From IMG/VR virus record IMGVR_UViG_2526164668_000014: a stretch of DNA of 35,142 nucleotides, one strand, 5' to 3'. This DNA comes from a virus. Lineage: Duplodnaviria > Heunggongvirae > Uroviricota > Caudoviricetes. Below are positions 11,405-30,731 of this stretch, piece by piece. Each line of letters starts with the position of its first letter. Within the stretch, counting starts at the first letter, position 1. The translations under genes were made by a program, and so were the position numbers. Below the pieces are notes generated by a model. It had not been told where the DNA came from. It was given only the letters and a program-made list of their open reading frames with translations, and did not search any database.

Positions 11405-11712
11405 ATGACTCAAGACTATGAACTGGTTGTGAAAGGAGTCCGTAATTTTGAGAATAAAGTTACGGTAACTGTAGCCTTACAGGACAAAGAACGCTTTGAC
11501 GGTGAAATTTTTGACCTGGATGTCGCCATGGACCGTGTTGAAGGAGCTGCGCTGGAGTTTTATGAGGCAGCAGCCAGAAGGAGCGTCCGGCAAGTCTTCC
11601 TGGAAGTAGCAGAAAAATTGTCAGAAAAAGTTGAGTCTTATCTGCAGCATCAGTACTCCTTTAAGATTGAAAATCCTGCCAATAAGCACGAGCGTCCTCA
11701 TCATAAATATCT

Positions 11713-11716
<4 letters not shown>
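11405..11716 (+). CDS. ydfR: YdfR (DUF1327) protein between holin and endolysin
   Basis: 103-aa ORF tightly packed between essQ and the lysozyme gene. Confidence 0.8.
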
Positions 11717-12740
<1,024 letters not shown>

Positions 12741-13101
12741 GGTAATATTAAATCGGAACATTTACATCGCGGAATGTAAAATTTGAATAAAAAGGACTCT
12801 TCCATGAGCCAAAATTCCTGAAATCTTAAGGGTAAGATAAAAGGTCTTAATCAGAATGACACGTTTTATTAATAAATAAAGCTATTCTTTCATTGCTGTG
12901 TTTTTCTTTACAAAAGTAATCCTTGCTATGGGTGGTTAATCATGCGTTAATGGTGTTCTGGTTTGTTACAAATTTATCTGAAGCAGTCATTGTTATAATT
13001 TTATTATTTGTACCTCTTGAGATTTCCTTGTTGGTTTTTCTCTCTGATATTTTTTTCGGACCATTCTGCCCAAGGGCTAATTTCTTCAAAAGGTAATAAT
13101 T

Positions 13102-13314
13102 ATGTCTAACAAAATGACTGGTTTAGTGAAATGGTTTAACCCTGAAAAAGGTTTTGGTTTCATCACGCCGAAAGATGGCAGCAAAGATGTGTTTGTCCAT
13201 TTCTCAGCAATTCAGAGCAACGATTTCAAAACATTAACTGAGAATCAGGAAGTTGAATTTGGTATTGAGAACGGACCTAAAGGTCCTGCCGCTGTTCATG
13301 TAGTGGCGCTTTGA
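13102..13314 (+). CDS. cspI: Cold-shock protein CspI
   Basis: 70 aa [37 protein letters not shown]... Confidence 0.9.
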
Positions 13315-13402
13315 GGTAGACAATATTACAAACCATATTCACTTTAGATGCCCGTGTTGTCATGGTTCCCAGTATAGAACATCATCTTTTGATGTTTCTG
13401 AC

Positions 13403-13513
13403 ATGAATCCTTTCGGGGCAAAATGTATCTTTTGTAAATCAATGATGATTACATTTGATAATATTTCACAATACTTAAATGCCAGCCGTCTGTCGTTGGA
13501 TTTAAAAAAGTGA
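13403..13513 (+). CDS. YnfN-like small zinc-ribbon ORF (start uncertain)
   Basis: Frame open from 13304 encodes ...RCPCCHGSQYRTSSFDVSDMNPFGAKCIFCKS...; first in-frame ATG is at 13403, after the first Cys pair. Confidence 0.35.
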   Translation: MNPFGAKCIFCKSMMITFDNISQYLNASRLSLDLKK

Positions 13514-13521
13514 AAATGAAG

Positions 13522-13541
13522 GCTCCTTCGGGAGCTTTTTT
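13522..13541 (+). terminator. Rho-independent terminator
   Basis: GCTCC-TTCG-GGAGC hairpin followed by TTTTTTG. Confidence 0.5.
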
Positions 13542-13585
13542 GCTTGGTGTCTATTCGATGGATACTCACATACTACGGTAACATC

Positions 13586-13816
13586 ATGAAAAAAATCATA
13601 GTTTTTTTTAACTCTGAACCAGCAGTGGTAGTGCCAGCGATGACTGGAGTTAACACCATCATGCGTGAATATCCAAATGGCGAAAAAACACACCTTACTG
13701 TAATGGCCGCAGGGTTTCCATCTCTGACCGGAGATCATAAAGTCATTTATGTAGCCGCGGATCGACATGTTACTTCAGAAGAAATTCTGGAAGCAGCAAT
13801 AAGGCTCTTGAGTTGA
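13586..13816 (+). CDS. Hypothetical small protein (76 aa)
   Basis: ORF MKKIIVFFNSEPAVVVPAMTG... downstream of the terminator; no strong SD. Confidence 0.4.
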   Translation: MKKIIVFFNSEPAVVVPAMTGVNTIMREYPNGEKTHLTVMAAGFPSLTGDHKVIYVAADRHVTSEEILEAAIRLLS

Positions 13817-13987
13817 TTTGATGCTATTGCATTGATAATTCAGGAAAATTCTCTTTGTCTGTTTGTGTAAAATTTAGACTATCGTATGTTGATTATTGCG
13901 ATGTTTCATCTTATCTTTTACACGTTTGCACCATATAATCGACTTACTGTGTAACTGGAAAGTCATAACAGACTAAAAGAGGAAATG

Positions 13988-14161
13988 ATGAATATTGAAG
14001 ACTTAAAAACAAAAGCAGAAGCAGATATTTCTGAATATATAACAAAAAAAATTATTGAACTTAAGAAAAAGACCGGGAAAGAAGTTACCAGTATTCAGTT
14101 TACCGCACGGGAAAAAATGACGGGTCTTGAAAGCTATGATGTCAAGATTAATTTAATCTGA
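13988..14161 (+). CDS. gnsB: GnsB (GnsA/GnsB family small protein)
   Basis: Hand-translated 57-aa ORF MNIEDLKTKAEADISEYITKKIIELKKKTGKEVTSIQFTAREKMTGLESYDVKINLI, below the ORF-track cutoff; an extra in-frame ATG at 13985. Confidence 0.8.
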   Translation: MNIEDLKTKAEADISEYITKKIIELKKKTGKEVTSIQFTAREKMTGLESYDVKINLI

Positions 14162-14312
14162 TGTATTCAATAATAAAATTTATCCATAAACCTCGTTTTT
14201 ACGGGGTTTTGTTATATTTGAATGGTTCCGAATATCTAAATCACAATTGTTGATGGTTTTTATTAAACCAATGCAGTCCGGCTCAGGAGTGAGAGAAGCC
14301 GGACGTTATGGT

Positions 14313-14744
14313 TTAGCGTGGTAAGATCTGTGTAGTTTTCTGGATGCTTTCAGTAATTTTCTGGATGCTTTCAGTAAATAGTAATGAGTTATCAAAGGCA
14401 TAGTAATATCTTTGGTGTTCCTGGATATTTGTAACCCATCGGAAAACTCCTGCTTTAGCAAGATTTTCCCTGTATTGTTGAAATGTGATTTCTTTTGATT
14501 TCAACTTATTATAGGAGGTCTCTATAAGATGTTTGTTTCTGGAGAATTTAACATTTACGACCTTTTTGAGTCCTTTTACTAACACTATGTTGTCGTTTTC
14601 TAACACAATGTGAATATTATCTGTGGCTAAATAGTAAATATAAAGTGAGACATTGTGACGTTTTAGCTCAGAATAAAATAATTCACAGTTTAAATCTTTA
14701 CGCACTTGATCGAATATTTCTTTAAAAATGGCAGCCTGAGCCAT
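14313..14744 (-). CDS. ydfO: YdfO (DUF1398) protein with a 7-codon C-terminal duplication
   Basis: [33 protein letters not shown]...; 143 aa versus a remembered 136 aa for K-12. Confidence 0.85.
14336..14377. repeat. Perfect 21-bp tandem duplication inside ydfO
   Basis: TTTTCTGGATGCTTTCAGTAA occurs twice in tandem, encoding [14 protein letters not shown]. Confidence 0.9.
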
Positions 14745-15044
14745 TGGTAAACCTTCCATGTGATACGATGGCGCGTAGTTAGCATTATCGTGTTTATTGT
14801 TTCAATCTGGTCTGACCTCTTTGTGTTTTGTTGATGATTTATGTCAAATATTAAGCCTGTTTTTAATGAATAGTGTTGATTGCGTAACAAAATTGAGCCT
14901 TGCTGGCATCCAGGAGGGATATGCAACCGACAGATGTATGTAAGGTCGATGTACTCAAACTTTCATACTTTTCCTCTTTTATGCAGTAAGATTTGAAGTA
15001 ATATTTTAACCGCTAGATGACGAGCAAACGCATGGAGCGACAAA

Positions 15045-15813: not shown

Positions 15814-16308
15814 ATGGATCGAGAGTTAAAAAATCTGACGCTGAATATCAGTCAATTGGCGGCACTGTCAGGTGTACATCGCCAGACTGCTGCGGCAAGG
15901 CTGCAAAATCTACCCGTTGCAGGGGGGCATGAAAGCAACCTCAAGCTTTATCGGGTGGTTGATATTGTGTCGGCATTTCTGGCATTACCACCGCCGGTTG
16001 CAGAAGGCGAAATGGACGCACATGAGCGCAAAGCCTGGTATCAGTCTGAACGTGAGCGTCTTAAGTTCGAACAGGAAACGGCACAACTCATTCCGGCCAG
16101 TGATGTCAGACGGGAGTTTGCCATCTGGGCAAAAGCGGTCGTGCAGGTGCTGGAGACATTACCGGATATTCTTGAACGTGACTGCGGTCTGCAGCCTGCC
16201 GCTGTGAGCCGTGTTCAGTCCATTATTGATGATCTGCGCGATCAGATAGCCCTGCGGGTGACTGAAGCAGGTGCGGATGATGAGGAGGAATTACAGCAGG
16301 AGGAGTAA
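15814..16308 (+). CDS. Terminase small subunit (Nu1/NohA-like)
   Basis: 164 aa; N-terminal HTH (LNISQLAALSGVHRQTAAARL), acidic C-terminus; stop overlaps the large-subunit ATG. Confidence 0.85.
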   Translation: MDRELKNLTLNISQLAALSGVHRQTAAARLQNLPVAGGHESNLKLYRVVDIVSAFLALPPPVAEGEMDAHERKAWYQSERERLKFEQETAQLIPASDVRREFAIWAKAVVQVLETLPDILERDCGLQPAAVSRVQSIIDDLRDQIALRVTEAGADDEEELQQEE

Positions 16309-18410
16309 TGCTGAATCAGGAAACCGCAAAGGCAGCACGAACCGATTCAGGTTATATCCTTCGCGCACCGAGACGAATGCGGGTTGCTGATGCCGTTGCT
16401 CAGTATATGCGGGTGCCCATGGGGGCAGGGAACTCAGTCCCGTGGGATCCGCTGGTGGCACCGTATGTTATTGAGCCTATGAACTGCCTGGCCTCGCGTG
16501 AATACGACGCAGTGATATTTGTTGGCCCGGCACGAACCGGCAAGACTATCGGCCTGATTGACGGCTGGGTGATTTACAACGTGATTTGCGATCCTGCTGA
16601 TATGCTGATCATTCAGATGACGGAGGAAAAAGCCCGCGAACACTCCAAAAAACGACTCGCCAGAACGTTTCGCGTCAGCCCGGAAGTGGTCAGTCGCCTG
16701 AGTCCGAACAAAAATGACAACAACGTTTATGACAGAACATTCCTTGCTGGCAACTACCTGAAAATCGGCTGGCCGTCAGTCAATATCATGTCTTCATCAG
16801 ATTATAAATGCGTGGCGCTGACGGATTATGACCGTTTTCCGGAAGATATTGATGGTGAGGGGGATGCCTTCTCTCTTGCCTCAAAACGTACCACCACATT
16901 TATGTCCAGTGGTATGACGCTTGTGGAGAGTTCCCCCGGCAGGGATGTGAAGGATGTGAAATGGCGACGGACTTCACCGCATGAGGCTCCACCAACCACG
17001 GGGATCCTGTCGCTCTATAACCGTGGCGATCGCCGTCGCTGGTACTGGCCCTGTCCACACTGTGGTGAGTATTTTCAGCCCTGCGGCGATGTGGTTGCTG
17101 GTTTCCGTGATATTGCCGATCCTGTGCTGGCAAGTGAGGCGGCTTATATTCAGTGTCCTTCCTGTTCAGGACGGATTTTGCCTGAACAAAAACGCGAGCT
17201 GAACGGACGTGGGGTCTGGTTACGGGATGGTGAATCCATCAATGCAGATGGCAGTCGTTATGGTGATCCCCGGCGTTCACGTATTGCGTCATTCTGGATG
17301 GAGGGTCCGGCAGCTGCTTATCAGACACTCTCGCAACTCGTTTACAAACTGCTTACTGCAGAACAGGAATACGAGACAACCGGAAGTGAAGAGACACTCA
17401 AGACGGTTATCAATACCGACTGGGGATTACCTTATCTTCCCCGCGCCAGCATGGAGCAACGAAAAAGTGAATTGCTTGAGCAGCGGGCAGAGCCAGTTCC
17501 TTCCCGCAGTGTGCCGGATGGCGTTAATTTCCTTGTGGCGACAGTGGATGTGCAGGCGGGACGTCATCGCCGTTTTGTGGTTCAGGTAACGGGCTATGGC
17601 AGCCGTGGCGAACGCTGGATTATTGATCGTTACAACATCACGCAGTCATTGCGCGGTGACAGCGACGGGGAGAGCCAGCGAATTGATCCGGCCAGCTATC
17701 CGGAAGACTGGGATGTCCTGCTGACGGATGTTTTTCATAAAAGCTGGCCGCTGGCCTCCGCCCCTTCTCAACAAATGCGACTGATGGCAATGGCGGTGGA
17801 CTCCGGCGGTGAAGACGGGGTCACTGATAATGCCTATAAATTCTGGCGTCGTTGCCGTCGTGATGGCCTTGGTAAACGTATTTACCTGTTTAAGGGCGAC
17901 AGCATCCGGCGAGCAAAACTGATCACCCGTACATTCCCTGATAACACCGGACGAACGGGCCGACGGGCGCAGGCCGCAGGTGATGTGCCGCTCTGGCTTC
18001 TTCAGACGGATGCCCTGAAAGACCGGGTGAATAACGCGTTATGGCGTGACTCGCCAGGTCCCGGCTATGTGCATTTCCCTGACTGGCTGGGGAGCTGGTT
18101 TTACGACGAACTGACGTATGAAGAGCGGAGCAGTGACGGGAAATGGAGTAAGCCGGGTCGCGGTGCCAACGAAGCTTTTGACCTGATGGTGTATGCCGAG
18201 GCTCTGGTCATTCTGCATGGATACGAAAAGATCCGCTGGCCGGATGCACCGGAGTGGGCGAGCCGGGAAACCTGGCTGGAGTGTGTCCCGGACAGTACCG
18301 AACCGTCACCCTCACCGGAACCGGTACCCACGCCTGTTAAAAAACAAAAACGGAAGAAAACAGTAACTGACGATGTTAACCCCTGGCTGACTTCCGGAGG
18401 ATGGTTATGA
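16308..18410 (+). CDS. Terminase large subunit (gpA family)
   Basis: 700 aa; Walker A-like GPARTGKT; Cys cluster CPHCGEYF...CPSCSGRI. Confidence 0.9.
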   Translation: MLNQETAKAARTDSGYILRAPRRMRVADAVAQYMRVPMGAGNSVPWDPLVAPYVIEPMNCLASREYDAVIFVGPARTGKTIGLIDGWVIYNVICDPADMLIIQMTEEKAREHSKKRLARTFRVSPEVVSRLSPNKNDNNVYDRTFLAGNYLKIGWPSVNIMSSSDYKCVALTDYDRFPEDIDGEGDAFSLASKRTTTFMSSGMTLVESSPGRDVKDVKWRRTSPHEAPPTTGILSLYNRGDRRRWYWPCPHCGEYFQPCGDVVAGFRDIADPVLASEAAYIQCPSCSGRILPEQKRELNGRGVWLRDGESINADGSRYGDPRRSRIASFWMEGPAAAYQTLSQLVYKLLTAEQEYETTGSEETLKTVINTDWGLPYLPRASMEQRKSELLEQRAEPVPSRSVPDGVNFLVATVDVQAGRHRRFVVQVTGYGSRGERWIIDRYNITQSLRGDSDGESQRIDPASYPEDWDVLLTDVFHKSWPLASAPSQQMRLMAMAVDSGGEDGVTDNAYKFWRRCRRDGLGKRIYLFKGDSIRRAKLITRTFPDNTGRTGRRAQAAGDVPLWLLQTDALKDRVNNALWRDSPGPGYVHFPDWLGSWFYDELTYEERSSDGKWSKPGRGANEAFDLMVYAEALVILHGYEKIRWPDAPEWASRETWLECVPDSTEPSPSPEPVPTPVKKQKRKKTVTDDVNPWLTSGGWL

Positions 18411-18619
18411 ATCAGAATGATATTGAAGCCATGATTCAGCGTTATACGGAAGCTGAAATGGCGGTGCTGGACGGAAAATCCGTCACTTTTAATGGTCAGC
18501 AGATGACCATGGAAAACTTATCTGAGATCCGGCAGGGGCGGCAGGAGTGGGAGCGCCGCCTTGCGGCTCTGATTACACGACGACGGGGGCATCCCGGGTA
18601 CCGGCTGGCGAGGTTCTGA
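18407..18619 (+). CDS. W: gpW-like head completion protein
   Basis: About 70 aa; GGAGG SD before the second ATG; ATGA overlap with the terminase stop and TGATG overlap with the portal start. Confidence 0.7.
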   Translation: MNQNDIEAMIQRYTEAEMAVLDGKSVTFNGQQMTMENLSEIRQGRQEWERRLAALITRRRGHPGYRLARF

Positions 18620-20127
18620 TGGCAATTCTTGATGATGTGATTGGCGTTTTTTCACCAGGATGGAAAGCGGCAAGGCTGCGTTCCCGTGCGGTGATCCAGG
18701 CTTATGAGGCCGTAAAAACGACGCGGACACACAAAGCCCGACGGGAGAACCGAACTGCCGACCAGTTAAGCCAGTACGGGGCCGTGTCGTTACGTGAGCA
18801 GGCTCGTTACCTTGATAACAACCACGATCTGGTCATTGGTGTATTTGACAAGCTGGAAGAACGGGTGGTGGGGAAAAACGGGATTATTGTCGAGCCACAT
18901 CCGGTATTACGCAATGGGGCCATTGCCCGTGATCTGGCAGCGGAGATACGTACCCGATGGAGTGAATGGTCTGTCAGTCCGGAGGTCACCGGGCAGTTTA
19001 CCCGTCCGATGCTGGAACGTCTGATGCTGCGTACCTGGCTGCGCGATGGTGAGGTGTTTGCCCAGATGGTTTCCGGGCGCATAAACAGCCTGACGCCTTC
19101 TGCCGGTGTTCATTTCTGGCTGGAGGCGCTCGAGCCGGACTTTATTCCCATGACCAGTGATGAGAGCAACAGGCTGAATCAGGGCGTGTTTGTTGATGAC
19201 TGGGGGCGTCCCGAAAAATATCTGGTGTATAAAAGCCGTCCCGTATCCGGGCGGCAGATGGAAACCAAAGAAGTGGATGCAGAGCGAATGCTGCATCTTA
19301 AATTTGTTCGCCGTCTGCACCAGATGCGCGGGACGTCTTTGTTGTCCGGTGTGCTGATCCGCCTCAGTGCTCTGAAAGAGTATGAAGATTCTGAGCTGAC
19401 TGCAGCAAGGATCGCCGCTGCTCTGGGGATGTACATCCGGAAAGGCGACGGACAGAGCTATGAAACGGATGGTAATGACAGCAAGGAGAATGAACGCGAG
19501 CTTACCATTCAGCCAGGCATTATTTACGACGATCTGAAACCCGGCGAAGAAATCGGAATGGTGAAGTCGGATCGCCCCAATCCTAACCTTGAAACTTTTC
19601 GTAATGGTCAGTTGCGTGCCGTGGCTGCGGGCAGTCGTCTGAGTTTTTCCAGTACAGCGCGCAACTATAACGGCACCTACAGCGCCCAGCGTCAGGAGCT
19701 GGTTGAATCTACTGATGGCTACCTGATCCTGCAGGACTGGTTTATTGGTGCCGTCACCCGCCCGATGTACCGTGCCTGGCTGAAACAGGCTGTGGTATCC
19801 GGTGTTATCAGGCTACCCCGCGATCTGGACCGATCTTCACTGTATACCGCGGTGTATTCCGGACCGGTGATGCCGTGGATTGACCCTGTTAAGGAGGCTG
19901 AGGCCTGGAAAATTCAGATTCGTGGTGGAGCGGCGACAGAATCAGACTGGGTACGTGCAGGTGGTCGTAATCCAGATGATGTCAAACGTCGGCGCAAGGC
20001 CGAAATTGATGAAAACCGCAAGCTGGATCTGGTATTTGATACCGATCCGGCCAGTGATAAAGGAGGCAGCAGTGCCGCAACGAAACGACAGGAGCCGCAG
20101 CACACCGACGACCAGTCCGAAGAATAA
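18619..20127 (+). CDS. B: Portal protein (lambda gpB family)
   Basis: 502 aa from MAILDDVIGVF...; positioned between W and the protease/capsid gene. Confidence 0.85.
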   Translation: MAILDDVIGVFSPGWKAARLRSRAVIQAYEAVKTTRTHKARRENRTADQLSQYGAVSLREQARYLDNNHDLVIGVFDKLEERVVGKNGIIVEPHPVLRNGAIARDLAAEIRTRWSEWSVSPEVTGQFTRPMLERLMLRTWLRDGEVFAQMVSGRINSLTPSAGVHFWLEALEPDFIPMTSDESNRLNQGVFVDDWGRPEKYLVYKSRPVSGRQMETKEVDAERMLHLKFVRRLHQMRGTSLLSGVLIRLSALKEYEDSELTAARIAAALGMYIRKGDGQSYETDGNDSKENERELTIQPGIIYDDLKPGEEIGMVKSDRPNPNLETFRNGQLRAVAAGSRLSFSSTARNYNGTYSAQRQELVESTDGYLILQDWFIGAVTRPMYRAWLKQAVVSGVIRLPRDLDRSSLYTAVYSGPVMPWIDPVKEAEAWKIQIRGGAATESDWVRAGGRNPDDVKRRRKAEIDENRKLDLVFDTDPASDKGGSSAATKRQEPQHTDDQSEE

Positions 20128-20140
20128 TTCCTGGTTCAGG

Positions 20141-22099
20141 ATGCAGGCAGGTCACCAGAGTGACGCGGATATTTATATTTATGACGAGATTGGTTTCTGG
20201 GGTGTTACGGCGAAGCAGTTTATCAGTGATCTGAATGCACTGGGCGATATCACCCACATTAATCTCCATATTAATTCACCGGGTGGCGATGTCTTTGAAG
20301 GCATCGCCATTTTTAATGCACTGAAAACACATGGTGCGTCCATTACCGTTTATGTCGACGGTGTGGCGGCGTCAATGGCGTCGGTCATTGCGATGGTGGG
20401 AAACCCGGTCATTATGCCGGAAAACTCCTTCATGATGATTCATAAACCATTTGGCTTTACGGGCGGTGATGCGGAGGACATGCGCACCTATGCCGACCTG
20501 CTCGATAAAGTTGAGGCGGTTCTGTTACCCGCTTATGCACAGAAAACCGGGAAAACCACAGATGAAATTGCTGCCATGCTGGCGGATGAGACCTGGATGT
20601 CCGGTGCCGAATGTCTGGCACAGGGATTTGCTGATCAGGTGACACCAGCCGTTAAGGCAATGGCATGTATTCAGTCAAAACGTACAGAGGAATTTAAAAA
20701 GATGCCGGAATCCATTCGAAATATGATTACTCCGCCACGCAACAGTGCTCCACGCGTACAGGATGATGGACCTGCAGCCTCCCGGACACCAGTGCAGGCA
20801 GCAGCACCCGTGGTGGATGAAAACAGCATCCGTGCGCAGGTCCTGGCAGAGCAAAAAGCGCGTGTAAACGGTATTAATGATCTGTTTGCCATGTTTGGCG
20901 GGCGTTATCAGTCGTTGCAGGCTCAGTGTCTTGCCGATCCTGAATGTTCGCTGGAGCAGGCCCGCGAAAAGCTGTTGAACGAGATGGGGCGCGAGTCCAC
21001 GCCATCCAATAAAAATACCCCGGCTCATATTTATGCCGGTAACGGTAATTTTGTGGGGGACGGGATCCGCCAGGCGCTGATGGCGCGCGCCGGGTTTGAA
21101 AAAACTGAACGTGATAATGTCTACAACGGGATGACCCTGCGTGAATATGCCCGTATGTCACTGACTGAACGTGGTATTGGTGTTTCCAGTTATAACCCGA
21201 TGCAGATGGTCGGTGCGGCGTTCACACACAGTACGTCTGACTTCGGTAATATTCTGCTGGATGTTGCGAACAAAGCCATTCTGCAGGGCTGGGAAGATGC
21301 CCCTGAAACCTATGAACAGTGGACGCGGAAAGGTCAGTTGTCTGATTTTAAAATTGCCCATCGTGTGGGTATGGGGGGCTTCAGTGCTCTGCGTCAGGTG
21401 CGTGAAGGGGCAGAATATAAATACGTCACCACCGGAGATAAACAGGCCACTATTGCACTGGCGACCTATGGCGAGCTGTTCAGTATCACCCGTCAGGCCA
21501 TTATCAATGATGATCTGAATATGCTGACCGATGTCCCGATGAAGCTGGGCCGTGCGGCGAAATCCACTATTGCCGATCTGGTTTATGCCATTCTGACGTC
21601 TAACCCGAAAATCTCCACAGATAATGTAAGTCTGTTCGATAAAGCGAAACATGCAAACGTACTGGAGAGCGCGGCAATGGACGTGGCATCGCTGGATAAA
21701 GCCCGCCAGTTGATGCGCGTTCAGAAAGAGGGTGAGCGTCATCTGAATATTCGTCCTGCGTTCGTACTGGTACCGACGGCGATGGAGTCTGTTGCTAACC
21801 AGGTCATTCGCTCCTCAAGTGTCAAGGGGGCTGACATTAACGCCGGTATTATTAACCCGGTGAAAGATTTTGCGACCGTTATTGCAGAGCCTCGTCTTGA
21901 TGATAACAGCCAGACCACCTTCTACCTGGCTGCGTCCAAAGGCTCCGATACGATTGAAGTGGCTTATCTCAACGGTGTGGATACGCCATATATTGATCAG
22001 ATGGAGGGCTTCAGTGTGGATGGCGTGACAACGAAAGTGCGTATTGACGCTGGTGTTGCGCCAGTTGATCACCGCGGCCTGGTGAAATGTACGGCGTAA
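20141..22099 (+). CDS. Prohead protease (ClpP/S14-like) fused to major capsid protein
   Basis: 652 aa; N-terminal ClpP-like region with GVAASMASVI serine motif; C-terminal region about 330 aa in the major-capsid position; followed by a terminator. Confidence 0.8.
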   Translation: MQAGHQSDADIYIYDEIGFWGVTAKQFISDLNALGDITHINLHINSPGGDVFEGIAIFNALKTHGASITVYVDGVAASMASVIAMVGNPVIMPENSFMMIHKPFGFTGGDAEDMRTYADLLDKVEAVLLPAYAQKTGKTTDEIAAMLADETWMSGAECLAQGFADQVTPAVKAMACIQSKRTEEFKKMPESIRNMITPPRNSAPRVQDDGPAASRTPVQAAAPVVDENSIRAQVLAEQKARVNGINDLFAMFGGRYQSLQAQCLADPECSLEQAREKLLNEMGRESTPSNKNTPAHIYAGNGNFVGDGIRQALMARAGFEKTERDNVYNGMTLREYARMSLTERGIGVSSYNPMQMVGAAFTHSTSDFGNILLDVANKAILQGWEDAPETYEQWTRKGQLSDFKIAHRVGMGGFSALRQVREGAEYKYVTTGDKQATIALATYGELFSITRQAIINDDLNMLTDVPMKLGRAAKSTIADLVYAILTSNPKISTDNVSLFDKAKHANVLESAAMDVASLDKARQLMRVQKEGERHLNIRPAFVLVPTAMESVANQVIRSSSVKGADINAGIINPVKDFATVIAEPRLDDNSQTTFYLAASKGSDTIEVAYLNGVDTPYIDQMEGFSVDGVTTKVRIDAGVAPVDHRGLVKCTA

Positions 22100-22185
22100 A
22101 CGTCGCAGACAACAACTCTGATGGCCCGTAAGGGCTTTTTTTGTACCTGAAATCAGCCCCTGAACGGGGCTGTGCGGAGACAGTT

Positions 22186-22509
22186 ATGGCAAAGAATTTT
22201 GTAGAAGAAGGAAAAACGGTGGCGATTGTTGCCAGTGCAGCCATCAGCAGCGGAGATCTGGTGCAGGTGGGTGATGTTTTTGCGGTGGCGCTGACCGATA
22301 TTCCACAGGGAGAAACAGGCGACGGCATAACCGAAGGTGTGTTTATGCTGCCTAAGCTGAAAACGGATGACATGAAAACGGGTAAGAAGGTTTATCTGAA
22401 GTCAGGAAAAGTTCAGCTGACTAACAGCGGCTCTGATCCGCTGGTCGGGGTTGTATGGGCAGATGCCGGAACCAGTGCAGAAGAAGTGCCGGTAAAACTC
22501 AATGTCTGA
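22186..22509 (+). CDS. Small head-associated protein (possible decoration or connector protein)
   Basis: 107 aa after GGAGA SD, directly downstream of the capsid gene. Confidence 0.5.
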   Translation: MAKNFVEEGKTVAIVASAAISSGDLVQVGDVFAVALTDIPQGETGDGITEGVFMLPKLKTDDMKTGKKVYLKSGKVQLTNSGSDPLVGVVWADAGTSAEEVPVKLNV

Positions 22510-22777
22510 TCCCTTTTCCCGGCTGGCAGCGCGTATGGATGCGATCACGGTCAGAAAGATGGGAAAGACAGCCTCGATTAATGATGTCGATATGACTGTG
22601 ATCCCGGGAGAAACACTGGCAGAGCTGAATGCTCTGTCCGGACCTGCGGTCTCTCTGGTGGTGTTTTCTTCGGGATACCGCCCACGGCGCGGGGATCGCG
22701 TTGTTTATGACGGACAACAATGGACGGTCACACGGCATGAACGTTTTAACAGTAAGCCAATGATCTTTATTGAGTAA
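22502..22777 (+). CDS. Head-tail joining protein (hypothetical)
   Basis: 91-aa ORF overlapping the previous stop. Confidence 0.5.
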   Translation: MSDPFSRLAARMDAITVRKMGKTASINDVDMTVIPGETLAELNALSGPAVSLVVFSSGYRPRRGDRVVYDGQQWTVTRHERFNSKPMIFIE

Positions 22778-22788
22778 AGAGGTGTGGG

Positions 22789-23367
22789 ATGAAGGGGCTT
22801 GAGAATGCCATCCGCAATCTGAACAGCCTTGATACCCGTATGGTGCCACAGGCCAGCGCATGGGCGATAAACCGTTTGGCACAGAAAGCGGTCTCGGTTG
22901 CCACCCGGCAGGTTGCCGGGAATACCGTTGCGGGAGATAACCAGGTGAAAGGGATCCCCCTGAAACTGGTACGTCAGCGTGTCCGGGTGTTTAAAGCCAG
23001 TCCGTCAGGAAAAATGACGGCCAGGATCCGCGTTAACCGGGGCAATCTGCCCGCCATTAAGCTGGGGACAGCCCGGGTCAGACTGGCCCGGCGTGGTGGA
23101 AAACTGCAGTACCGTGGCAGTGTGCTGAAGGTGGGTAAATATCTTTTCCGGGATGCGTTTATTCAGCAACTGGCGAATGGTCGCTGGCATGTGATGCGAC
23201 GTATTGATGGCAAAAATCGTTACCCCATTGATGTGGTGAAAATCCCGCTGTCCGGACCGCTGACACAGGCATTTGAAGATGCCCGCGACCACATCATTGC
23301 TGCGGAAATGCCGAAACAGCTTGGGTATGCACTGAAACAACAACTGAGGTTATGGCTGACCCGATGA
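22789..23367 (+). CDS. Z: Tail completion protein Z-like
   Basis: 192 aa; conserved GRWHVMRRIDGKNRYPIDVVKIP segment as in lambda Z; gene order. Confidence 0.7.
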   Translation: MKGLENAIRNLNSLDTRMVPQASAWAINRLAQKAVSVATRQVAGNTVAGDNQVKGIPLKLVRQRVRVFKASPSGKMTARIRVNRGNLPAIKLGTARVRLARRGGKLQYRGSVLKVGKYLFRDAFIQQLANGRWHVMRRIDGKNRYPIDVVKIPLSGPLTQAFEDARDHIIAAEMPKQLGYALKQQLRLWLTR

Positions 23368-23765
23368 ACCGACATACACAAATCCGCCAGGCCGTACTGG
23401 CACGCCTTCGGGAACAGTGTGGAGACAGCGCCACGTTTTTTGACGGGCTTCCGGCATTTATTGATGCGCAGGAACTGCCTGCCGTGGCGGTGTGGCTGAG
23501 TGATGCTCAGTACACCGGAAAAATGACGGATGAAGATGACTGGCAGGCTGTTCTGCATATTGCCGTCTTCATCCGGGCACAGGCACCGGATTCAGAGCTG
23601 GATATGTGGATGGAGAGCACCATTTTCCCTGCCCTGAATGATATACCGGCACTTTCCGGACTCATCGACACCCTGATCCCACTCGGTTTTAACTATCAAC
23701 GTGATAATGAGATGGCCACCTGGGCGATGGCGGAAATCACGTACCAGATCACGTACACGAATTAA
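23364..23765 (+). CDS. U: Tail terminator protein U-like
   Basis: MNRHTQIRQAVLARL...ATFFDG...PAVAVWL matches remembered lambda U; ATGA overlap with the Z stop. Confidence 0.75.
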   Translation: MNRHTQIRQAVLARLREQCGDSATFFDGLPAFIDAQELPAVAVWLSDAQYTGKMTDEDDWQAVLHIAVFIRAQAPDSELDMWMESTIFPALNDIPALSGLIDTLIPLGFNYQRDNEMATWAMAEITYQITYTN

Positions 23766-23775
23766 GGAGGTGGTA

Positions 23776-24519
23776 ATGACCACACCAAATCCACTGGCAA
23801 AGACGAAAGGTGCGGGGACGACGTTCTGGATGTATACCGGCAACGGCGATGCGTTTGCGAACCCTTTGTCGGACACTGACTGGCTGCGTCTTGCGATGGT
23901 GAAGGATCTGCAACCTGGCGAAATGACCGCTGATGCAGAAGATGACACTTATCTCGATGATGAAGATGCAGACTGGAAAACGACAACCCAGGGGCAGAAA
24001 TCCGTTGGTGATACTTCGGCGACGCTGGCCTGGCGTCCGGGTGACAGCGGGCAGAAAAAACTGGTTCAGTTGTTCGACTCCGGTGAAGTCTGCGCGTTTC
24101 GTATCAAATATCCCAACGGCACTGTTGATGTTTTCCGTGGCTGGCTGAGCTCACTGGGTAAAACCATTGCCTCAAAAGACGTGATGACCCGCACTGTGAA
24201 AATCAGCGGTGTGGGGCGTCCGTATCTGGCAGAGGAAGGCACTGAAACCGTGAGCGTTACCGGGCTGACAGTATCACCGGCGTCTGCCAGTGTAAAAGTG
24301 GGAGCAACCACCACGCTGACCTTTACAGTAAAACCTGACGGAGCCAGTGACAAAGCGATCAGTGTGCATTCGTCAGATCCACAGACTGCCACGGTTACCC
24401 TGAACGGACTTGTGGCCACGGTAAAAGGCGTGAAGCAGGGCAGTGTCAGCATTGTGGGCATGACCGCTGACGGGAATTTTGTGGCTGTGACTGCGGTGAC
24501 TGTCAGCGCAGCAGGTTAA
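23776..24519 (+). CDS. V: Major tail protein V with C-terminal Ig-like (Big_2) domain
   Basis: AAGGAGG SD; 247 aa; C-terminal TVSPASASVKVGATTTLTFTVKPDGASD... Ig-like repeat. Confidence 0.85.
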   Translation: MTTPNPLAKTKGAGTTFWMYTGNGDAFANPLSDTDWLRLAMVKDLQPGEMTADAEDDTYLDDEDADWKTTTQGQKSVGDTSATLAWRPGDSGQKKLVQLFDSGEVCAFRIKYPNGTVDVFRGWLSSLGKTIASKDVMTRTVKISGVGRPYLAEEGTETVSVTGLTVSPASASVKVGATTTLTFTVKPDGASDKAISVHSSDPQTATVTLNGLVATVKGVKQGSVSIVGMTADGNFVAVTAVTVSAAG

Positions 24520-24539
24520 CAGGACGATACTCATCATTT

Positions 24540-24563
24540 GCCCCGGTTATGCGGGGCTTTTTT
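24540..24563 (+). terminator. Rho-independent terminator between V and G
   Basis: GCCCCG-GTTATG-CGGGGC hairpin followed by TTTTTT. Confidence 0.6.
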
Positions 24564-24576
24564 GCAGGTGGAGAAC

Positions 24577-24966
24577 ATGATGTTTCTGAAACAGGACACG
24601 TTTAATTATGAAAAACAGTCCGTGGTGCTCAGTGAGCTGTCCGGGCTGCAGAGAATTGAATATCTGACGTTTGTTCAGCAGCGAACGGCAAAGTTTGATG
24701 CCGGGGAGGGAGAACTGCCGGAGGCTGAACGACAGATTGCTTTTCTGCGGATGGGGATGGATATCAATGCCTGGCTGGTTTCCCGCTCACTGTGGAATGC
24801 GGATCAGTCTAAGGATGTAGAGACGCTTTGCGCATCCGTTATTACAACATGGTCGTATGATGCCCTGGGTGCGGGGGCGGAGATGGTTCTGTCGCTGAGC
24901 GGTATGGGGGCCATTGATAATGCCGTGGATGATGAGCATGAGGCGCTGACGCCGGAAAAGTCCTGA
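24577..24966 (+). CDS. G: Tail assembly chaperone G
   Basis: MMFLKQDTFNYEKQSVVLSELSGLQRIEYL resembles remembered lambda G (MFLKTESFEHNGVTVTLSELSALQRIEHL). Confidence 0.8.
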   Translation: MMFLKQDTFNYEKQSVVLSELSGLQRIEYLTFVQQRTAKFDAGEGELPEAERQIAFLRMGMDINAWLVSRSLWNADQSKDVETLCASVITTWSYDALGAGAEMVLSLSGMGAIDNAVDDEHEALTPEKS

Positions 24967-25304
24967 CGCGGGAAATGCAGTTTGTCATGCGGCTTGCCCG
25001 GGAGTTCCGGCGGGCAGACTGGCGGCGGATGCTGTCGGAAATGTCTGCCACTGAGCTTGGTGAGTGGGGCGATTATTTCCGGATGCAGAGCTTCAGTGAT
25101 GTGTGGATGGATGCACAGTTTGCCTCGCTGAAGGCATTGATCGTGAGAATGGTGTCCGGCAGCAGTGATGCTGCGGTGGCTGATTTCAGCCTTTTACCGG
25201 AAGAGAACGGGATACCGGAGCGAACGGACGAAGAACTGATGCATCTTGGGGAAGGTATTTCCGGAGGTGTGCGTTATGGACCAGATAGCCAACCTGGTCA
25301 TTGA
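24942..25304 (+). CDS. T: T segment of the G-T chaperone, expected to be expressed by a -1 frameshift from G
   Basis: The -1 frame is open from 24942 and overlaps the last 8 codons of G; candidate slip site GGAAAAG at 24954-24960. Confidence 0.6.
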   Translation, partial: GADAGKVLTREMQFVMRLAREFRRADWRRMLSEMSATELGEWGDYFRMQSFSDVWMDAQFASLKALIVRMVSGSSDAAVADFSLLPEENGIPERTDEELMHLGEGISGGVRYGPDSQPGH

Positions 25305-28300
25305 TTTGGGGATTGATGCGGCAGAGTTTAAAAATGAAATTCCCCGTATCAAAAACCTTCTGAATGGTGCAGCCAGCGATGCAGAACGGTCTTCTGCCCG
25401 TATGCAGCGTTTTATGGAGCGTCAGACTCAGGCCGCCCGGCAGACAACGCAGGCAGCTTCTTCGGCTGCAACAGCCGCATCCGTCCATGCGCAGACGGTG
25501 GAGAAGAACGCACAGGCTCATGAACGCATGGCCCGCGAGGTGGAGAAAACCCGCCAGCGCATGGAGGCACTGAGCCAGAAAATGCGCGAGGAACAGGCGC
25601 AGGCCATGGCTCTGGCGGAGGCTCAGGATAAAGCGGCTGCTGCGTTTTATCGTCAGATTGACAGTGTGAAACAGGCCAGTGCGGGGCTGCAGGAATTACA
25701 GCGTATTCAGCAGCAGATCCGACAGGCCAGAAACAGTGGCGGGATTGGTCAGCAGGATTATCTGGCGCTGATTTCTGAGGTTACTGCGAAAACCCGTGTT
25801 CTTACACAGGCTGAGGAAGAGGCTACCCGACAGAAAGTGGCGTTTATCCGTCAGCTTAAAGAGCAGGCAACCCGCCTGAATCTTTCATCTTCTGAGTTGC
25901 TTCGTGCTAAGGCAGCCCAGTTGGGGGTAAGCAGTGCTGCAGAAGTGTATATCCGCAAAATGGAGCAGGCAGGAAAAGCCACGCATTCGCTGGGTCTGAA
26001 AAGTGCAGCAGCCCGCCAGGAGATAGGCGTTCTGATAGGTGAACTGGCCCGCGGCAATTTAGGGGCGCTGAGGGGATCCGGGATAACGCTGGCTAACCGT
26101 GCCGGATGGATAGACACACTGATGTCACCGAAAGGCATGATGCTTGGCGGGGTTATTGGCGGTATTGCCGCGGCCGTCTATGGTCTGGGTAAAGCCTGGT
26201 ATGACGGTCAGAAGGAGGGGGAAGAATTTAACCGCCAGTTGTCGCTGACGGGGCATTATGCCGGAGTCACTGCCGGGCAGCTGTGGACGCTCAGTCGTGC
26301 TATTTCCGGGAATGGTATCACGCAACATGCTGCAGCCGGTGCGCTGGCTCAGGTGGTGGGGAGTGGTGCATTTCGTGGAAACGATATCGGTATGGTGGCG
26401 AGAGCTGCCGCACAGATGGAGCGATCGGTTGGCCAGTCGGTCAGCGATACCATAAATCAGTTTAAGCGGCTGAAGGATGATCCTGTAAATGCCGCGAAGG
26501 CTCTGGACAATGAGCTGCATTTTCTTACTGCCACTCAGCTTGAGCAGATACGTGTCCTTGGGGATCAGGGACGGTCCAGTGATGCTGCACGGATAGCCAT
26601 GTCTGCACTGGCAGAGGAAACCGGTCGGCGTACTGCGGATATTGATAATAACCTCAATGCGCTTGGCAGTACGCTGAAGTATCTGTCTGATTTGTGGAGT
26701 CGTTTCTGGGATGCGGCCATGAATATTGGTCGTGAAGACTCGCTGGATGAACAGATTGCCGCTTTACAGGAGAAAGTGTCGCGGGCGAAAAGACTCCCCT
26801 GGACGGCATCATCTTCTCAGGTTGAATACGATCAGCAGCGTCTTAACGATCTTCAGGAGAAAAAACGCCAGAAGGATTTGCAGGATGCAAAAGAGCAGGC
26901 AGAGCGGAATTATCAGGAGCAACAGAAACGCCGTAATGCTGAAAATGCTGCACTGAACCGGATGAATGAAACGGAAGCAGCACGACATCAGCGTGAAATT
27001 GCGCGTATTAATTCCATGCAGTACGCCGATCAGACTGTCAGGGATGCAGCGATACAAAGTGAAAATGAACGTTACGAGAAAGCCCTAGCATCCGGTAAGA
27101 AAAAAACACGCGAAACCCGTAATGATGAGGCCACCCGGTTATTGCTGCAGTACAGTCAGCAACAGGCACAGGTGGAAGGACAGATTGCTGCTGCAAGACA
27201 GTCAGCAGGCATTGCCACTGAAAAGATGACAGAAGCGCATAAACAGCTTCTGGCTCTGCAGCAGCGCATCAGCGATCTGGACGGGAAAAAACTGACGGCA
27301 GATGAAAAGAGTGTGCTGGCCCGTAAAGATGAACTGATTCAGGCACTGACGCTGCTGGATGTAAAACAGCAGGAGCTTCAGAAACAGACGGCACTCAACG
27401 ATCTGAAGAAAAAAACAATTCAGCTGACCAGTCAACTGGCTGAAGAAGAGCGCGCTCAGCGTCAGCAACATGACCTGGATATCGCCACGGTGGGTATGGG
27501 TGATCAGCAGCGGCAGCGATATCAGGTACAACTGAGTCTTCGCCAGAAATACCAGCAACAGCTGGAGCAGTTGAGGCGGGATAGTGAGCAGAAAGGGACA
27601 TATAACACGGATGACTACAGAAAGGCCGAGCAGGCGCTGACGGAGAGCCTGAACCGACAACTGAATGAGAATCGCCGTTACTGGCAACAGCTTGAAGTTG
27701 TGCAGGGTAACTGGAAAAACGGAGTCCTGCGTGCATTTCAGGATTTTACCGTGGATGCAGACAATACGGCAGGAACAGCAGAACAGGTGTTCTCGTCAGC
27801 CTTCAGCAACATGGGAAATGGCCTGGCAACTTTTGTCACTACCGGCAAACTCAACTTCAAATCCTTCACCTCTTCGGTGCTGTCAGATATGGCGAAAATT
27901 CTGGCGCAGGCAACCATGATGAAATCGATAAAAGGGATTGGCAGTGTACTGGGATTTGATCTCAGCAGCCTTTCCCTGAATGCCAATGGGGGGATTTATC
28001 AGTCTGCTGATTTGAGTCGTTACAGTGGCACGGTGGTTAACCGTCCGACGTTTTTTGCTTTTGCAAAAGGCGCGGGTGTGATGGGGGAAGCTGGACCTGA
28101 AGCCATTCTGCCACTGCGTCGTGGTGCTGACGGTAAGCTGGGGGTTGTGGCGGATATTGGTGGTTCAGGTATGGCGATGTTTGCCCCGCAGTACAACATC
28201 GAGATCAATAACGATGGCACGAACGGGCAGATAGGTCCGGCTGCCCTGAAGGTGGTTTATGACCTTGGGAAAAAAGCAGCAGCGGACTTTATGCAACAGC

Positions 28301-28341
28301 AGGCCCGTGATGGTGGTCGGTTAAGTGGAGCATATCGGTAA
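25276..28341 (+). CDS. H: Tail tape measure protein H
   Basis: About 1021 aa, long coiled-coil Q/A/E/R-rich, positioned between G-T and M. Confidence 0.85.
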   Translation: MDQIANLVIDLGIDAAEFKNEIPRIKNLLNGAASDAERSSARMQRFMERQTQAARQTTQAASSAATAASVHAQTVEKNAQAHERMAREVEKTRQRMEALSQKMREEQAQAMALAEAQDKAAAAFYRQIDSVKQASAGLQELQRIQQQIRQARNSGGIGQQDYLALISEVTAKTRVLTQAEEEATRQKVAFIRQLKEQATRLNLSSSELLRAKAAQLGVSSAAEVYIRKMEQAGKATHSLGLKSAAARQEIGVLIGELARGNLGALRGSGITLANRAGWIDTLMSPKGMMLGGVIGGIAAAVYGLGKAWYDGQKEGEEFNRQLSLTGHYAGVTAGQLWTLSRAISGNGITQHAAAGALAQVVGSGAFRGNDIGMVARAAAQMERSVGQSVSDTINQFKRLKDDPVNAAKALDNELHFLTATQLEQIRVLGDQGRSSDAARIAMSALAEETGRRTADIDNNLNALGSTLKYLSDLWSRFWDAAMNIGREDSLDEQIAALQEKVSRAKRLPWTASSSQVEYDQQRLNDLQEKKRQKDLQDAKEQAERNYQEQQKRRNAENAALNRMNETEAARHQREIARINSMQYADQTVRDAAIQSENERYEKALASGKKKTRETRNDEATRLLLQYSQQQAQVEGQIAAARQSAGIATEKMTEAHKQLLALQQRISDLDGKKLTADEKSVLARKDELIQALTLLDVKQQELQKQTALNDLKKKTIQLTSQLAEEERAQRQQHDLDIATVGMGDQQRQRYQVQLSLRQKYQQQLEQLRRDSEQKGTYNTDDYRKAEQALTESLNRQLNENRRYWQQLEVVQGNWKNGVLRAFQDFTVDADNTAGTAEQVFSSAFSNMGNGLATFVTTGKLNFKSFTSSVLSDMAKILAQATMMKSIKGIGSVLGFDLSSLSLNANGGIYQSADLSRYSGTVVNRPTFFAFAKGAGVMGEAGPEAILPLRRGADGKLGVVADIGGSGMAMFAPQYNIEINNDGTNGQIGPAALKVVYDLGKKAAADFMQQQARDGGRLSGAYR

Positions 28342-28670
28342 TGGAGACGTTTCACTGGAAAGTGCGCCCGGATATGAATGTGGTATCAGAGCCGAAAGTG
28401 GTGACAGTGAAGCTGGGCGATGGTTATGAACAGCGTCGTGCGGCGGGACTGAATAACCAGTTGTCGACTTACAGCGTGACGATACGTGTTCGTAAATGTG
28501 AACACCCATCTTTAAAAGCCTTTCTGGAACGGCACGGTGGCGTCCGCGCATTTCAGTGGACGCCACCTTATGACTGGAAGCCGATCAGGGTGGTTTGTCG
28601 TAAATGGTCGGCAAGCGTGGGGGCGTTGTGGGTAACCATAACGGCAGATTTTGAACAGGTCGTGGCATAG
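28341..28670 (+). CDS. M: Minor tail protein M
   Basis: METFHWKVRPDMNVV...GDGYEQRRAAGLN...WTPPYDW...FEQVVA resembles remembered lambda M. Confidence 0.85.
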   Translation: METFHWKVRPDMNVVSEPKVVTVKLGDGYEQRRAAGLNNQLSTYSVTIRVRKCEHPSLKAFLERHGGVRAFQWTPPYDWKPIRVVCRKWSASVGALWVTITADFEQVVA

Positions 28671-28679
28671 GAGTCTCTG

Positions 28680-29378
28680 ATGCTGGATATTCCACAGGAA
28701 ACACATCATGAGACGACACGCCTCACTCAGTCAGCCCAGGTGGTGCTCTGGGAAATCGATCTGACAGTGGTCGGTGGAGAACGTTATTTTTTCTGTAATG
28801 AGCAGAACGAAAAAGGTGAGCCGGTCACCTGGCAGGGGCGACAGTATCAGGCCTATCCCATTCAGGGGACGGGATTTGAACTGAACGGCAAGGGCAGTGC
28901 TGCCCGTCCGACACTGACGGTTGCTAACCTGCACGGCATGGTCACCGGGATGGCGAAAGACCTGCAGAGTCTGGTCGGAGGAACGGTGGTCCGGCGTAAG
29001 GTTTACGCCCGTTTTCTGGATGCGGTGAACTTCGTCAACGGAAACAGTGACGCCGATCCGGAGCAGGAGGTGATCAGCCGCTGGCGCATCGAGCAGTGCA
29101 GCGAACTGAGCGCGGTGAGTGCCTCTTTTGTACTGTCCACGCCGACGGAAACGGACGGTGCCGTTTTTCCGGGACGTATCATGCTGGCCAACACCTGCAC
29201 CTGGACCTATCGCGGTGATGAGTGCGGTTATCACGGTCCGGCGGTCGCGGATGAATATGATCAGCCGACGTCCGATATCACGAAGGATAAATGCAGCAAA
29301 TGCCTGAGCGGCTGTAAGTTCCGCAATAACGTCGGCAACTTTGGCGGCTTCCTTTCCATTAACAAACTTTCGCAGTGA
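28680..29378 (+). CDS. L: Minor tail protein L
   Basis: 232 aa; Cys cluster CTWTYRGDECGY...CSKCLSGC; gene order. Confidence 0.85.
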   Translation: MLDIPQETHHETTRLTQSAQVVLWEIDLTVVGGERYFFCNEQNEKGEPVTWQGRQYQAYPIQGTGFELNGKGSAARPTLTVANLHGMVTGMAKDLQSLVGGTVVRRKVYARFLDAVNFVNGNSDADPEQEVISRWRIEQCSELSAVSASFVLSTPTETDGAVFPGRIMLANTCTWTYRGDECGYHGPAVADEYDQPTSDITKDKCSKCLSGCKFRNNVGNFGGFLSINKLSQ

Positions 29379-29383
29379 ATCCC

Positions 29384-30127
29384 ATGACAGAGACAGAATC
29401 AGCGATTCTGGCGCACGCCCGGCGATGTGCGCCAGCGGAGTCGTGCGGCTTCGTGGTAAGCACGCCGGAGGGGGAAAGATATTTCCCCTGCGTGAATATC
29501 TCCGGTGAGCCGGAGGCGTATTTCCGTATGTCGCCGGAAGACTGGCTGCAGGCAGAAATGCAGGGTGAGATTGTGGCGCTGGTCCACAGCCACCCCGGTG
29601 GTCTGCCCTGGCTGAGTGAGGCCGACCGGCGGCTGCAGGTGCAGAGTGATTTGCCGTGGTGGCTGGTCTGCCGGGGGACGATTCATAAATTCCGCTGTGT
29701 GCCGCATCTCACCGGGCGGCGCTTTGAGCACGGGGTGACGGACTGTTACACGCTGTTCCGGGACGCTTATCATCTGGCGGGGATTGAGATGCCGGACTTT
29801 CATCGTGAGGATGACTGGTGGCGTAACGGTCAGAATCTCTATCTGGATAATCTGGAGGCCACAGGGCTGTATCAGGTGCCGTTGTCATCAGCACAACCGG
29901 GCGATGTGCTGCTGTGCTGTTTTGGTTCATCGGTGCCGAATCATGCCGCCATTTACTGTGGCGACGGCGAGCTGCTGCACCATATTCCTGAACAACTGAG
30001 TAAACGAGAGAGGTACACCGACAAATGGCAGCGACGCACACACTCCCTCTGGCGTCACCGGGCATGGCACGCATCTGCCTTTACGGGGATTTGCAACGAT
30101 TTGGTCGCCGTATCGACCTTCGTGTGA
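29384..30127 (+). CDS. K: Tail tip assembly protein K (JAB/MPN plus NlpC/P60 domains)
   Basis: JAB motif EIVALVHSHPGG; C-terminal Cys/His peptidase-like region; GTG at 29375 is an alternative start. Confidence 0.85.
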   Translation: MTETESAILAHARRCAPAESCGFVVSTPEGERYFPCVNISGEPEAYFRMSPEDWLQAEMQGEIVALVHSHPGGLPWLSEADRRLQVQSDLPWWLVCRGTIHKFRCVPHLTGRRFEHGVTDCYTLFRDAYHLAGIEMPDFHREDDWWRNGQNLYLDNLEATGLYQVPLSSAQPGDVLLCCFGSSVPNHAAIYCGDGELLHHIPEQLSKRERYTDKWQRRTHSLWRHRAWHASAFTGICNDLVAVSTFV

Positions 30128-30672: not shown

Positions 30673-30691
30673 TGAAAAACGTTTATGTGAA

Positions 30692-30712: not shown

Positions 30713-30731
30713 CGTTTCTGGAGCGTGAGGA

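Follow-up and report, generated by a model that had tools for sequence, protein, structure and literature searches.

Does a single gene of a lambdoid prophage encode both the protease and the shell protein of its capsid, and does that gene give rise to one product or to two? This question is raised by a viral DNA of 35,142 nt (Caudoviricetes; IMG/VR record IMGVR_UViG_2526164668_000014), hereafter called the window, in which an uninterrupted open reading frame (ORF) of 652 aa runs from the ATG at 20141 to a stop codon ending at 22099. The initial annotation had read this ORF as the fusion of an N-terminal ClpP/S14-like protease and a C-terminal major capsid protein, a reading that is confirmed by matches to Pfam CLP_protease and Pfam Phage_capsid_4, neither of them attributable to chance, and to NCBIfam NF045540. 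The last of these is the model of the ClpP-like prohead protease/major capsid protein fusion protein, against which the entire protein scores 984 bits (cut-off 475), with residues 9-651 aligning to positions 2-651 of 652, and to which it belongs as a whole protein. PHROG 133 is also matched by the fusion protein over its full length. A protease, a central region (for which a length of ~100-200 residues defines the tripartite type) and a capsid domain thus lie in one frame between the portal and decoration genes, and the protein is 70% identical, over residues 18-674, to that of the Salmonella phage Gifsy-2 (STM1034.3n, NC_010393), whose "tripartite capsid gene" was reportedly described by Effantin and colleagues in 2010 (Virology 402:355). 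The architecture, family membership, fold and synteny of the gene are matters of observation, and we conclude with high confidence that this one frame, made of five successive parts, is a tripartite capsid gene of the Gifsy-2 type in a lambdoid prophage close to mEp460. The fusion as first proposed is in this sense a known gene, and has been since 2010.

While the open frame stands as initially annotated, its start codon probably does not. The reading frame continues open 5' of ATG 20141, and the gene most likely spans 20072-22099, beginning 69 nt further upstream at an in-frame GTG and encoding 675 aa (73.4 kDa). The GTG at 20072 is preferred because it follows a strong Shine-Dalgarno (SD) sequence (AAAGGAGG, 5-nt spacer, duplex free energy (dG) of -11.6), whereas ATG 20141 is without one (dG -2.2), and because the coding sequence (CDS) that RefSeq and its Prokaryotic Genome Annotation Pipeline (PGAP) assign to a 100%-identical E. 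coli copy begins at this GTG (675 aa, WP_001136588.1). It is further preferred because the "SWF.M" residues (..SWFR) encoded between the two candidate starts are conserved at the protein level in homologues of 35-50% identity, and because the Met that opens the 652-aa form is replaced by Ile or Leu in many homologues. Counted from the GTG, the gene shares its first 56 nt with the end of the portal gene, which is read in another frame and stops at 20127. The two forms of the gene are as follows.

20072..22099, plus strand: full fusion gene (protease/scaffold/major capsid), most likely form, based on the SD sequence, the PGAP CDS and NF045540.
20141..22099, plus strand: ORF from the ATG, 652 aa, the form first read and also the one annotated in the phage mEp460 record.

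Database records differ on the start of this gene, giving 652, 675 or 686 aa, and its product appears in phage records under names as diverse as "Major head protein", "head maturation protease", "protease/scaffold protein", "head-tail preconnector protease C" and "preconnector protein Nu3". Residue numbers in the domain map below follow the 652-aa form (Met1 = ATG 20141).

A long ORF of this kind could also be an artefact or a pseudogene, in which two normally separate genes have been joined by a frameshift or by the loss of a stop codon. Most phage relatives would fit such a view, since about 1600 of the 1649 matching phage records cover the N-terminal third only, ClpP-like prohead proteases being mostly stand-alone, and a homologue in Vibrio astriarenae is called as two genes. 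However, 2125 of 5426 complete E. coli genomes (~40%) gave a megablast match to the sequence, which is annotated there as a fusion, and in 1988 of these complete genomes the frame is unbroken and query coverage reaches 80% or more. Viable isolated phages carry the gene as well, mEp460, cdtI, Ayreon and HannyBb at 98-99.9% identity and Stx2 phages at ~77%. When one genome was scanned for each species, 80 loci were recovered, spread over Enterobacterales, Pasteurellaceae, Pseudomonas, Shewanella, Photobacterium, Psychromonas and further groups, and the frame is single and unbroken (627-667 aa) in these loci bar three N-terminally truncated matches and one premature stop. The same frame is kept in 195 distinct DNA versions from Gammaproteobacteria, with identities down to 49%, and among the 150 best hits to representatives of 50%-identity clusters, over 100 are collinear full-length fusions of 34-60% identity. 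Moreover, comparison of ORFs, Pfam matches and RefSeq annotation revealed no second capsid gene between the portal and tail genes, and in Vibrio astriarenae it is that copy which is frameshifted, its upstream frame reading on as ...AVASLTSNRIKDFHNMP. The frameshift artefact that the initial annotation had named as its refutation was thus looked for, and the same frame was found in genomes, phages and distant homologues; we consider an artefactual origin of the ORF to be practically out of the question.

The Vibrio astriarenae locus (BBMQ01000056; L153, 2990-3060) is instructive in itself: a 1-nt frameshift splits the fusion just 5' of the internal ATG discussed below, and gene callers take this ATG as the start of a 443-aa "prophage Clp protease-like protein" that is without the protease domain. 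Two cluster representatives, P0165 and P0224, begin exactly at the equivalent of this ATG and were considered as natural stand-alone scaffold-capsid genes. The idea was abandoned, the P0165 locus being a frameshifted fusion that provides no evidence for it; P0224 has no relatives among the viral contigs. ORFs on the antisense strand within the gene (e.g. 21158-21742, 194 aa) were treated as chance ORFs.

What does each part of the fusion contribute? Five successive parts can be delineated.

20207..20644, plus strand: ClpP-family (S14) serine protease domain, from Pfam CLP_protease, NF045542 and ClpP matches in the PDB.
20702..20812, plus strand: disordered, hypervariable linker rich in Pro, Ala, Thr and Gln, residues 188-224, from indels, poor conservation and a predicted local distance difference test score (pLDDT) <50.
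20819..20998, plus strand: three-helix scaffold ("delta-like") domain, residues 227-286, from the helices of the model and conservation in both fusion families (see below).
20999..21043, plus strand: disordered hinge of variable length, residues 287-301, from pLDDT <50 and indels of homologues at ~291-296.
21044..22096, plus strand: HK97-fold major capsid domain as predicted, residues ~302-652, ~38 kDa, from Pfam Phage_capsid_4, the model and Foldseek.

The assignment of the N-terminal domain is straightforward. Residues 23-168 match Pfam CLP_protease (PF00574, E 4.6e-36), and the equivalog-domain model NF045542, "head maturation protease, ClpP-related", is matched at 217 bits (cut-off 120). 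Sequence and profile searches of the PDB with the fusion protein returned ClpP chains only (E 8e-16 with the single sequence, 1e-33 with the profile) and no solved capsid relative. In the alignment with ClpP, the AAS(M) and IH(K/Q)P motifs are in register, the catalytic Ser78 and His101 being encoded at 20372-20374 and 20441-20443, respectively. To our knowledge, assembly into a stacked heptameric barrel with a Clp ATPase is not expected of prohead proteases. The third position of the ClpP triad, an Asp, aligns with Glu150, and the adjacent Asp149 is variable, as might be seen if the domain were a catalytically dead ClpP-like module that acts as a scaffold only and leaves the maturation cleavage to a host protease. 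We hold this to be very improbable: Ser78, His101 and the GG oxyanion motif (Gly48-Gly49) are invariant both in an alignment of 57 non-redundant homologues (mutual identity <95%, 49-100% identical to the window protein) and in a set of 90 homologues of 34-53% identity, position 150 is Glu in 55 of the 57 and could provide the acid, and the NF045542 score lies well beyond its cut-off.

Structure prediction, a check proposed in the initial annotation, was applied to the C-terminal part (residues 188-652) and yielded matches to capsid-like shells in the PDB. The AlphaFold model, computed from an alignment of 42 more diverse rows (pLDDT 74.9), shows three scaffold helices at positions 40-63, 70-78 and 84-97 of the short form that begins at residue 188 (pLDDT 70-85), and a capsid domain with a pLDDT of ~80-90. 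Residues 354-649 match Pfam Phage_capsid_4 (PF25209, E 6e-55) and also Mu-like_gpT (E 3.7e-08). A Foldseek comparison with the PDB gave 246 matches at E<=1e-3, and all 50 among the matches listed are encapsulins, capsids of phages or of phage-inducible chromosomal islands, or other capsid-like shells. The target-normalised template modelling scores (0.39-0.57) are moderate, as expected with a flexible E-loop and N-arm. We take these neighbours as HK97-fold shells, and the modelled capsid domain is taken to adopt the same fold. The hinge at residues 287-301 is the predicted zone of the maturation cleavage that would free the capsid domain.

We then come to the second half of the question, namely whether one ORF means one product. 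Downstream of the protease domain, the gene contains an in-frame ATG that has a putative ribosome-binding site of its own, at the codon of Met188.

20687..20691, plus strand: SD-like GAGGA within codons Glu183-Glu184, motif conserved in 195 of 195 sequences.
20702..22099, plus strand: proposed nested gene, encoding scaffold and capsid without the protease, 465 aa, 50.6 kDa.

Met188-Pro189 is invariant in the 57 homologues, while the adjoining residues vary. An ATG preceded, 8-12 nt upstream, by AGGA, GGAG or GAGG is present at this position in each of the 195 distinct homologous ORFs, viral contigs and Gifsy-2 included; the motif accompanies the ATG 20702 equivalent in every one of the 57 homologues, compared with a background of 5% and with 0-7% at ten other conserved Met columns. 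The site in the window, GAGGAATTTAAAAAGATG (20687-20704), has an SD dG of -6.0 and a local minimum free energy (MFE) of -1.4, and the accepted start of the downstream cement protein gene has an SD dG of -6.6. Based on these sequence features, we consider it fairly probable that translation also starts at ATG 20702 and yields a 465-aa scaffold-capsid protein devoid of the protease, in which case the single ORF would probably have a second, nested product comparable to Nu3. The nested CDS is not annotated in the phage and RefSeq records examined, and the internal start is not stated in the literature searched, a coverage outside which the 2010 Gifsy-2 paper falls. A dnaX-like -1 frameshift at the T AAA AAG just 5' of ATG 20702 was also considered and discarded, codons 186-187 not being conserved and the spacing from the SD sequence being unfit.

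Alternatively, only the full-length polyprotein would be made, each capsid subunit coming with its own protease, and the GAGGA...ATG element would be conserved for a reason other than initiation, such as an F-x-x-M-P motif that ends the protease domain (for instance for autocleavage or docking) combined with a constraint on the RNA (an AU-rich RNase E site, an unstructured linker). In its favour, distant fusions that lack Met188 still have Pro189 and, four positions ahead of it, the F/Y, the SD-ATG spacing is suboptimal, and a T=7 prohead could, by our own estimate, hold ~415 copies of the 36-kDa internal part. However, a protein motif leaves the codon usage unexplained. Wherever residue 183 is Glu (47 sequences), it is encoded by GAG, although GAG is the rarer codon (gene-wide fraction 0.38) and makes up at most 60% in the other 14 conserved Glu columns, a control with the same phylogeny; no other column among the 335 conserved ones is fixed for a single codon, and the codon fixed here is the rarer one. 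Where the amino acid changes, the replacement is AAG, CAG or GGA, and the purine core (AGG/GGA) is retained. The excess of synonymous-codon identity peaks gene-wide at codons 170-193 (z up to 4.1). The alternative is also opposed by a Met that is invariant in 195 of 195 sequences amid varying neighbours, and by an mRNA structure that is at its lowest in the gene exactly at ATG 20702: of 155 positions averaged across the 57 homologues, the 50-nt window centred on codon 188 has the least structure, with a mean MFE of -3.93 as opposed to -10.46 +/- 1.99 gene-wide.

Independent SD-ATG sites at the same junction in non-orthologous fusions also speak against the full-length polyprotein as sole product. 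Scans for distant fusions returned mostly members of the same clade or stand-alone proteases, and only L234 and L236 were informative: L234 has AAGGAG, a 7-nt spacer and an ATG opening "Met-Pro" at the protease/scaffold junction (dG -8.7), and L236 a similar site (dG -6.5). In a second fusion family, which has a different protease, an SD sequence and an ATG for "Met-Pro" are again found at the junction, in Stenotrophomonas phage S1 gp8 and in Ralstonia phage YO178_1. The presence of these junction sites in fusions with an unrelated protease suggests a general rule for such genes. On balance, production of the full-length polyprotein alone appears unlikely to us.

Several points nevertheless weigh against the scheme of a nested scaffold-capsid product within a tripartite gene. 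In the 90 distant fusions (here 34-48% identity), the residue aligned to Met188 is not Met but, for example, Val (21), Ala (19) or Pro (14). Because Pro189 is kept in 83 of these 90, where Met188 is absent, part of the local conservation is that of a protein-level motif. The SD core lies 10-11 nt from the ATG, at the long end of the working range of E. coli. The AlphaFold model of the full 652 aa, computed with 15 close homologues, has a pLDDT of 34.5 and is unusable, and the protease departs from the canonical triad at Glu150, as mentioned above. Finally, the processing, the stoichiometry and the short product are all things that we infer.

The following assembly pathway can be proposed, taken over by analogy from the 70%-identical Gifsy-2 system. 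A T=7 procapsid would be built from the capsid domains on the portal of the lambda family, and the scaffold and the protease would be tethered in its interior. The protease would then digest itself and the scaffold and cut near the hinge, leaving a shell protein of ~38 kDa. Upon DNA packaging the shell would expand, and trimers of the separately encoded cement protein would stabilise it. If the nested start is used, the ~50.6-kDa scaffold-capsid protein would be the main building block and the 73-kDa long form a minority subunit, which would carry the protease into the procapsid as part of a capsid subunit; the dose of protease would then depend on how often each of the two starts is used. That a nested in-frame gene pair working in this manner is both real and hitherto undescribed is a tentative proposal, to which we assign somewhat less than an even chance.

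The fusion as such is of little import, with a literature dating from 2010, an NCBI naming model of its own and a presence in about two-fifths of complete E. coli genomes. Its main use lies in the correction of annotations, since records variously call the product protease, scaffold, Nu3, preconnector protease C or major head protein. The possibly new point is the conserved internal start signal only. If true, the nested start would explain how the phage avoids making one protease per capsid subunit, and it would extend to the capsid protein itself the nested protease-scaffold strategy of lambda, Mu and herpesviruses. The same nested protease/scaffold logic operates in Mu I/Z and in herpesvirus UL26/UL26.5.

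How does this gene fit into the head module? Its neighbours were identified from Pfam, RefSeq and gene order.

15814-16308: small terminase, DUF1441-type, from gene order by Pfam/RefSeq.
16308-18410: large terminase, gpA family, from Pfam.
18407-18619: W-like adaptor.
18619..20127, plus strand: portal, lambda gpB family (Pfam Phage_portal_2, E 5e-82; PGAP coordinates).
22123..22146, plus strand: GC hairpin followed by a T7 run, terminator-like, between the capsid and decoration genes; a rho-independent terminator is annotated there in mEp460.
22186..22509, plus strand: head decoration/cement protein, 107 aa, functional analogue of lambda D (Pfam Phage_cement_2, E 2.8e-20; PHROG 122 "head decoration", E 5.5e-47).
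22502-22777: FII-like head-tail protein, 91 aa, from its position; PHROG 153, minor tail protein.

The FII-like gene is followed by Z, U, V, G, T, H and further tail genes. In the initial annotation, the fusion was thought to replace lambda D along with C, Nu3 and E, and to be followed by small connector genes. The role of D, however, lies outside the fusion, as a separate decoration/cement gene is located downstream (22186-22509); the first of the presumed connectors is thus the cement protein, and only the second, the FII-like head-tail piece, matches that description. No relative of the cement protein was found in the PDB. The 22502-22777 gene bears the RefSeq name "DNA breaking-rejoining protein", while Pfam places it in PF13856 ("Gifsy-2"), a family with the description "ATP-binding sugar transporter from pro-phage"; for a gene in this position, neither name seems right.

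The head module had also been assigned to a lineage different from that of the lambda-like tail module. The mosaic is real: at E<=1e-3, tblastn detected no match in the window for lambda Nu1, W, C, Nu3, D, E, FI and FII, whereas the tail proteins are 25-98% identical to those of lambda (Z 49, U 54, V 55, G 33, H 25, M 56, L 91, K 98, I 79 and J 90%). The two head modules are not wholly unrelated, though. Because its large terminase and portal belong to the lambda gpA and gpB Pfam families, the head module of the window is a distant relative of that of lambda, lambda A and B being 25% and 22% identical to their counterparts by tblastn.

Other features were noted along the window. Z, U, V, G, H and M (22786-28664) are 25-56% identical to lambda and L, K, I and J (28341-34112) 79-98%, an abrupt rise which implies a recombination junction near the M/L boundary, at ~28665-28680. 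The end of the gpG-like gene (24945-24980) reads CCG GAA AAG TCC TGA, where a -1 slip on A AAG leads into a T-like ORF (MQFVMRLAREF...); this junction looks like the G/GT tail-chaperone frameshift of the lambda type. Just 5' of the terminase genes, the G+C fraction of positions 10000-15000 is 0.34-0.45, versus 0.50-0.62 elsewhere. This stretch, for which the flanking genes in the identical E. coli locus are gnsB, a DUF1398 gene and hypothetical ones, probably represents lysis or cargo (moron) DNA.

How does the window gene compare with known systems? In lambda, C, Nu3, D and E occupy the same place as the fusion, between the portal and FII/Z, and the capsid is likewise decorated. The lambda protease and the ClpP-like protease share a peptidase clan (S49 and S14, respectively). 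According to the lambda annotation, Nu3 is nested in C, a parallel to the in-frame start proposed here; but in the window the capsid is in frame with the protease, and the decoration gene lies 3' of the capsid gene rather than 5'. HK97 gp4 and gp5 offer a second comparison. The shell protein of HK97 also has an N-terminal helical assembly (delta) domain, which is removed by a phage protease packaged in the prohead, and the proposed short product would have the architecture of gp5. By contrast, the HK97 protease is encoded by a separate gene and is of another family (herpesvirus-like, S78/U35 type), whereas that of the window is ClpP-like and fused. HK97 also relies on covalent chainmail cross-links and is not known to have a decoration protein, while the window has a cement gene next to the fusion.

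The second fusion family, NF045541 ("prohead protease/major capsid protein fusion protein", e.g. Stenotrophomonas phage S1 gp8), is homologous in its scaffold and capsid parts, is followed by a decoration gene and has an internal AGGAG...ATG "MP" at the junction. Its N-terminal protease region does not align with the ClpP-like domain of the window, and the window protein, which scores 399 bits over residues 197-649 only (cut-off 525), lies outside this family. mEp460 gp05, the cdtI "protease/scaffold protein" and WP_001136588.1, at 98.5-100% nucleotide identity, are the same gene as that of the window, mEp460 and RefSeq differing in the annotated start (ATG, 652 aa, versus GTG, 675 aa) and in the product name.

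The closest described system is Gifsy-2. The gene order is identical (terS, terL, W-like, portal, fusion, decoration, FII-like, Z, U, V), the syntenic neighbours are 42-71% identical, with 61% for the 107-aa decoration protein, and the order of protease, linker, scaffold and capsid is shared, as is the Met188 site, which reads GAGGAG...ATG CCG in Gifsy-2 (dG -8.8). Gifsy-2 is counted among the phages whose capsids bear trimers of a cement protein on their 3-fold axes (PMC8538268), and its capsid is listed as T=7 (PMC8814770). The window differs from it in its E. coli host, in being another allele with a linker 21 residues shorter, and in its tail-tip genes L-J, which are nearly identical to those of lambda.

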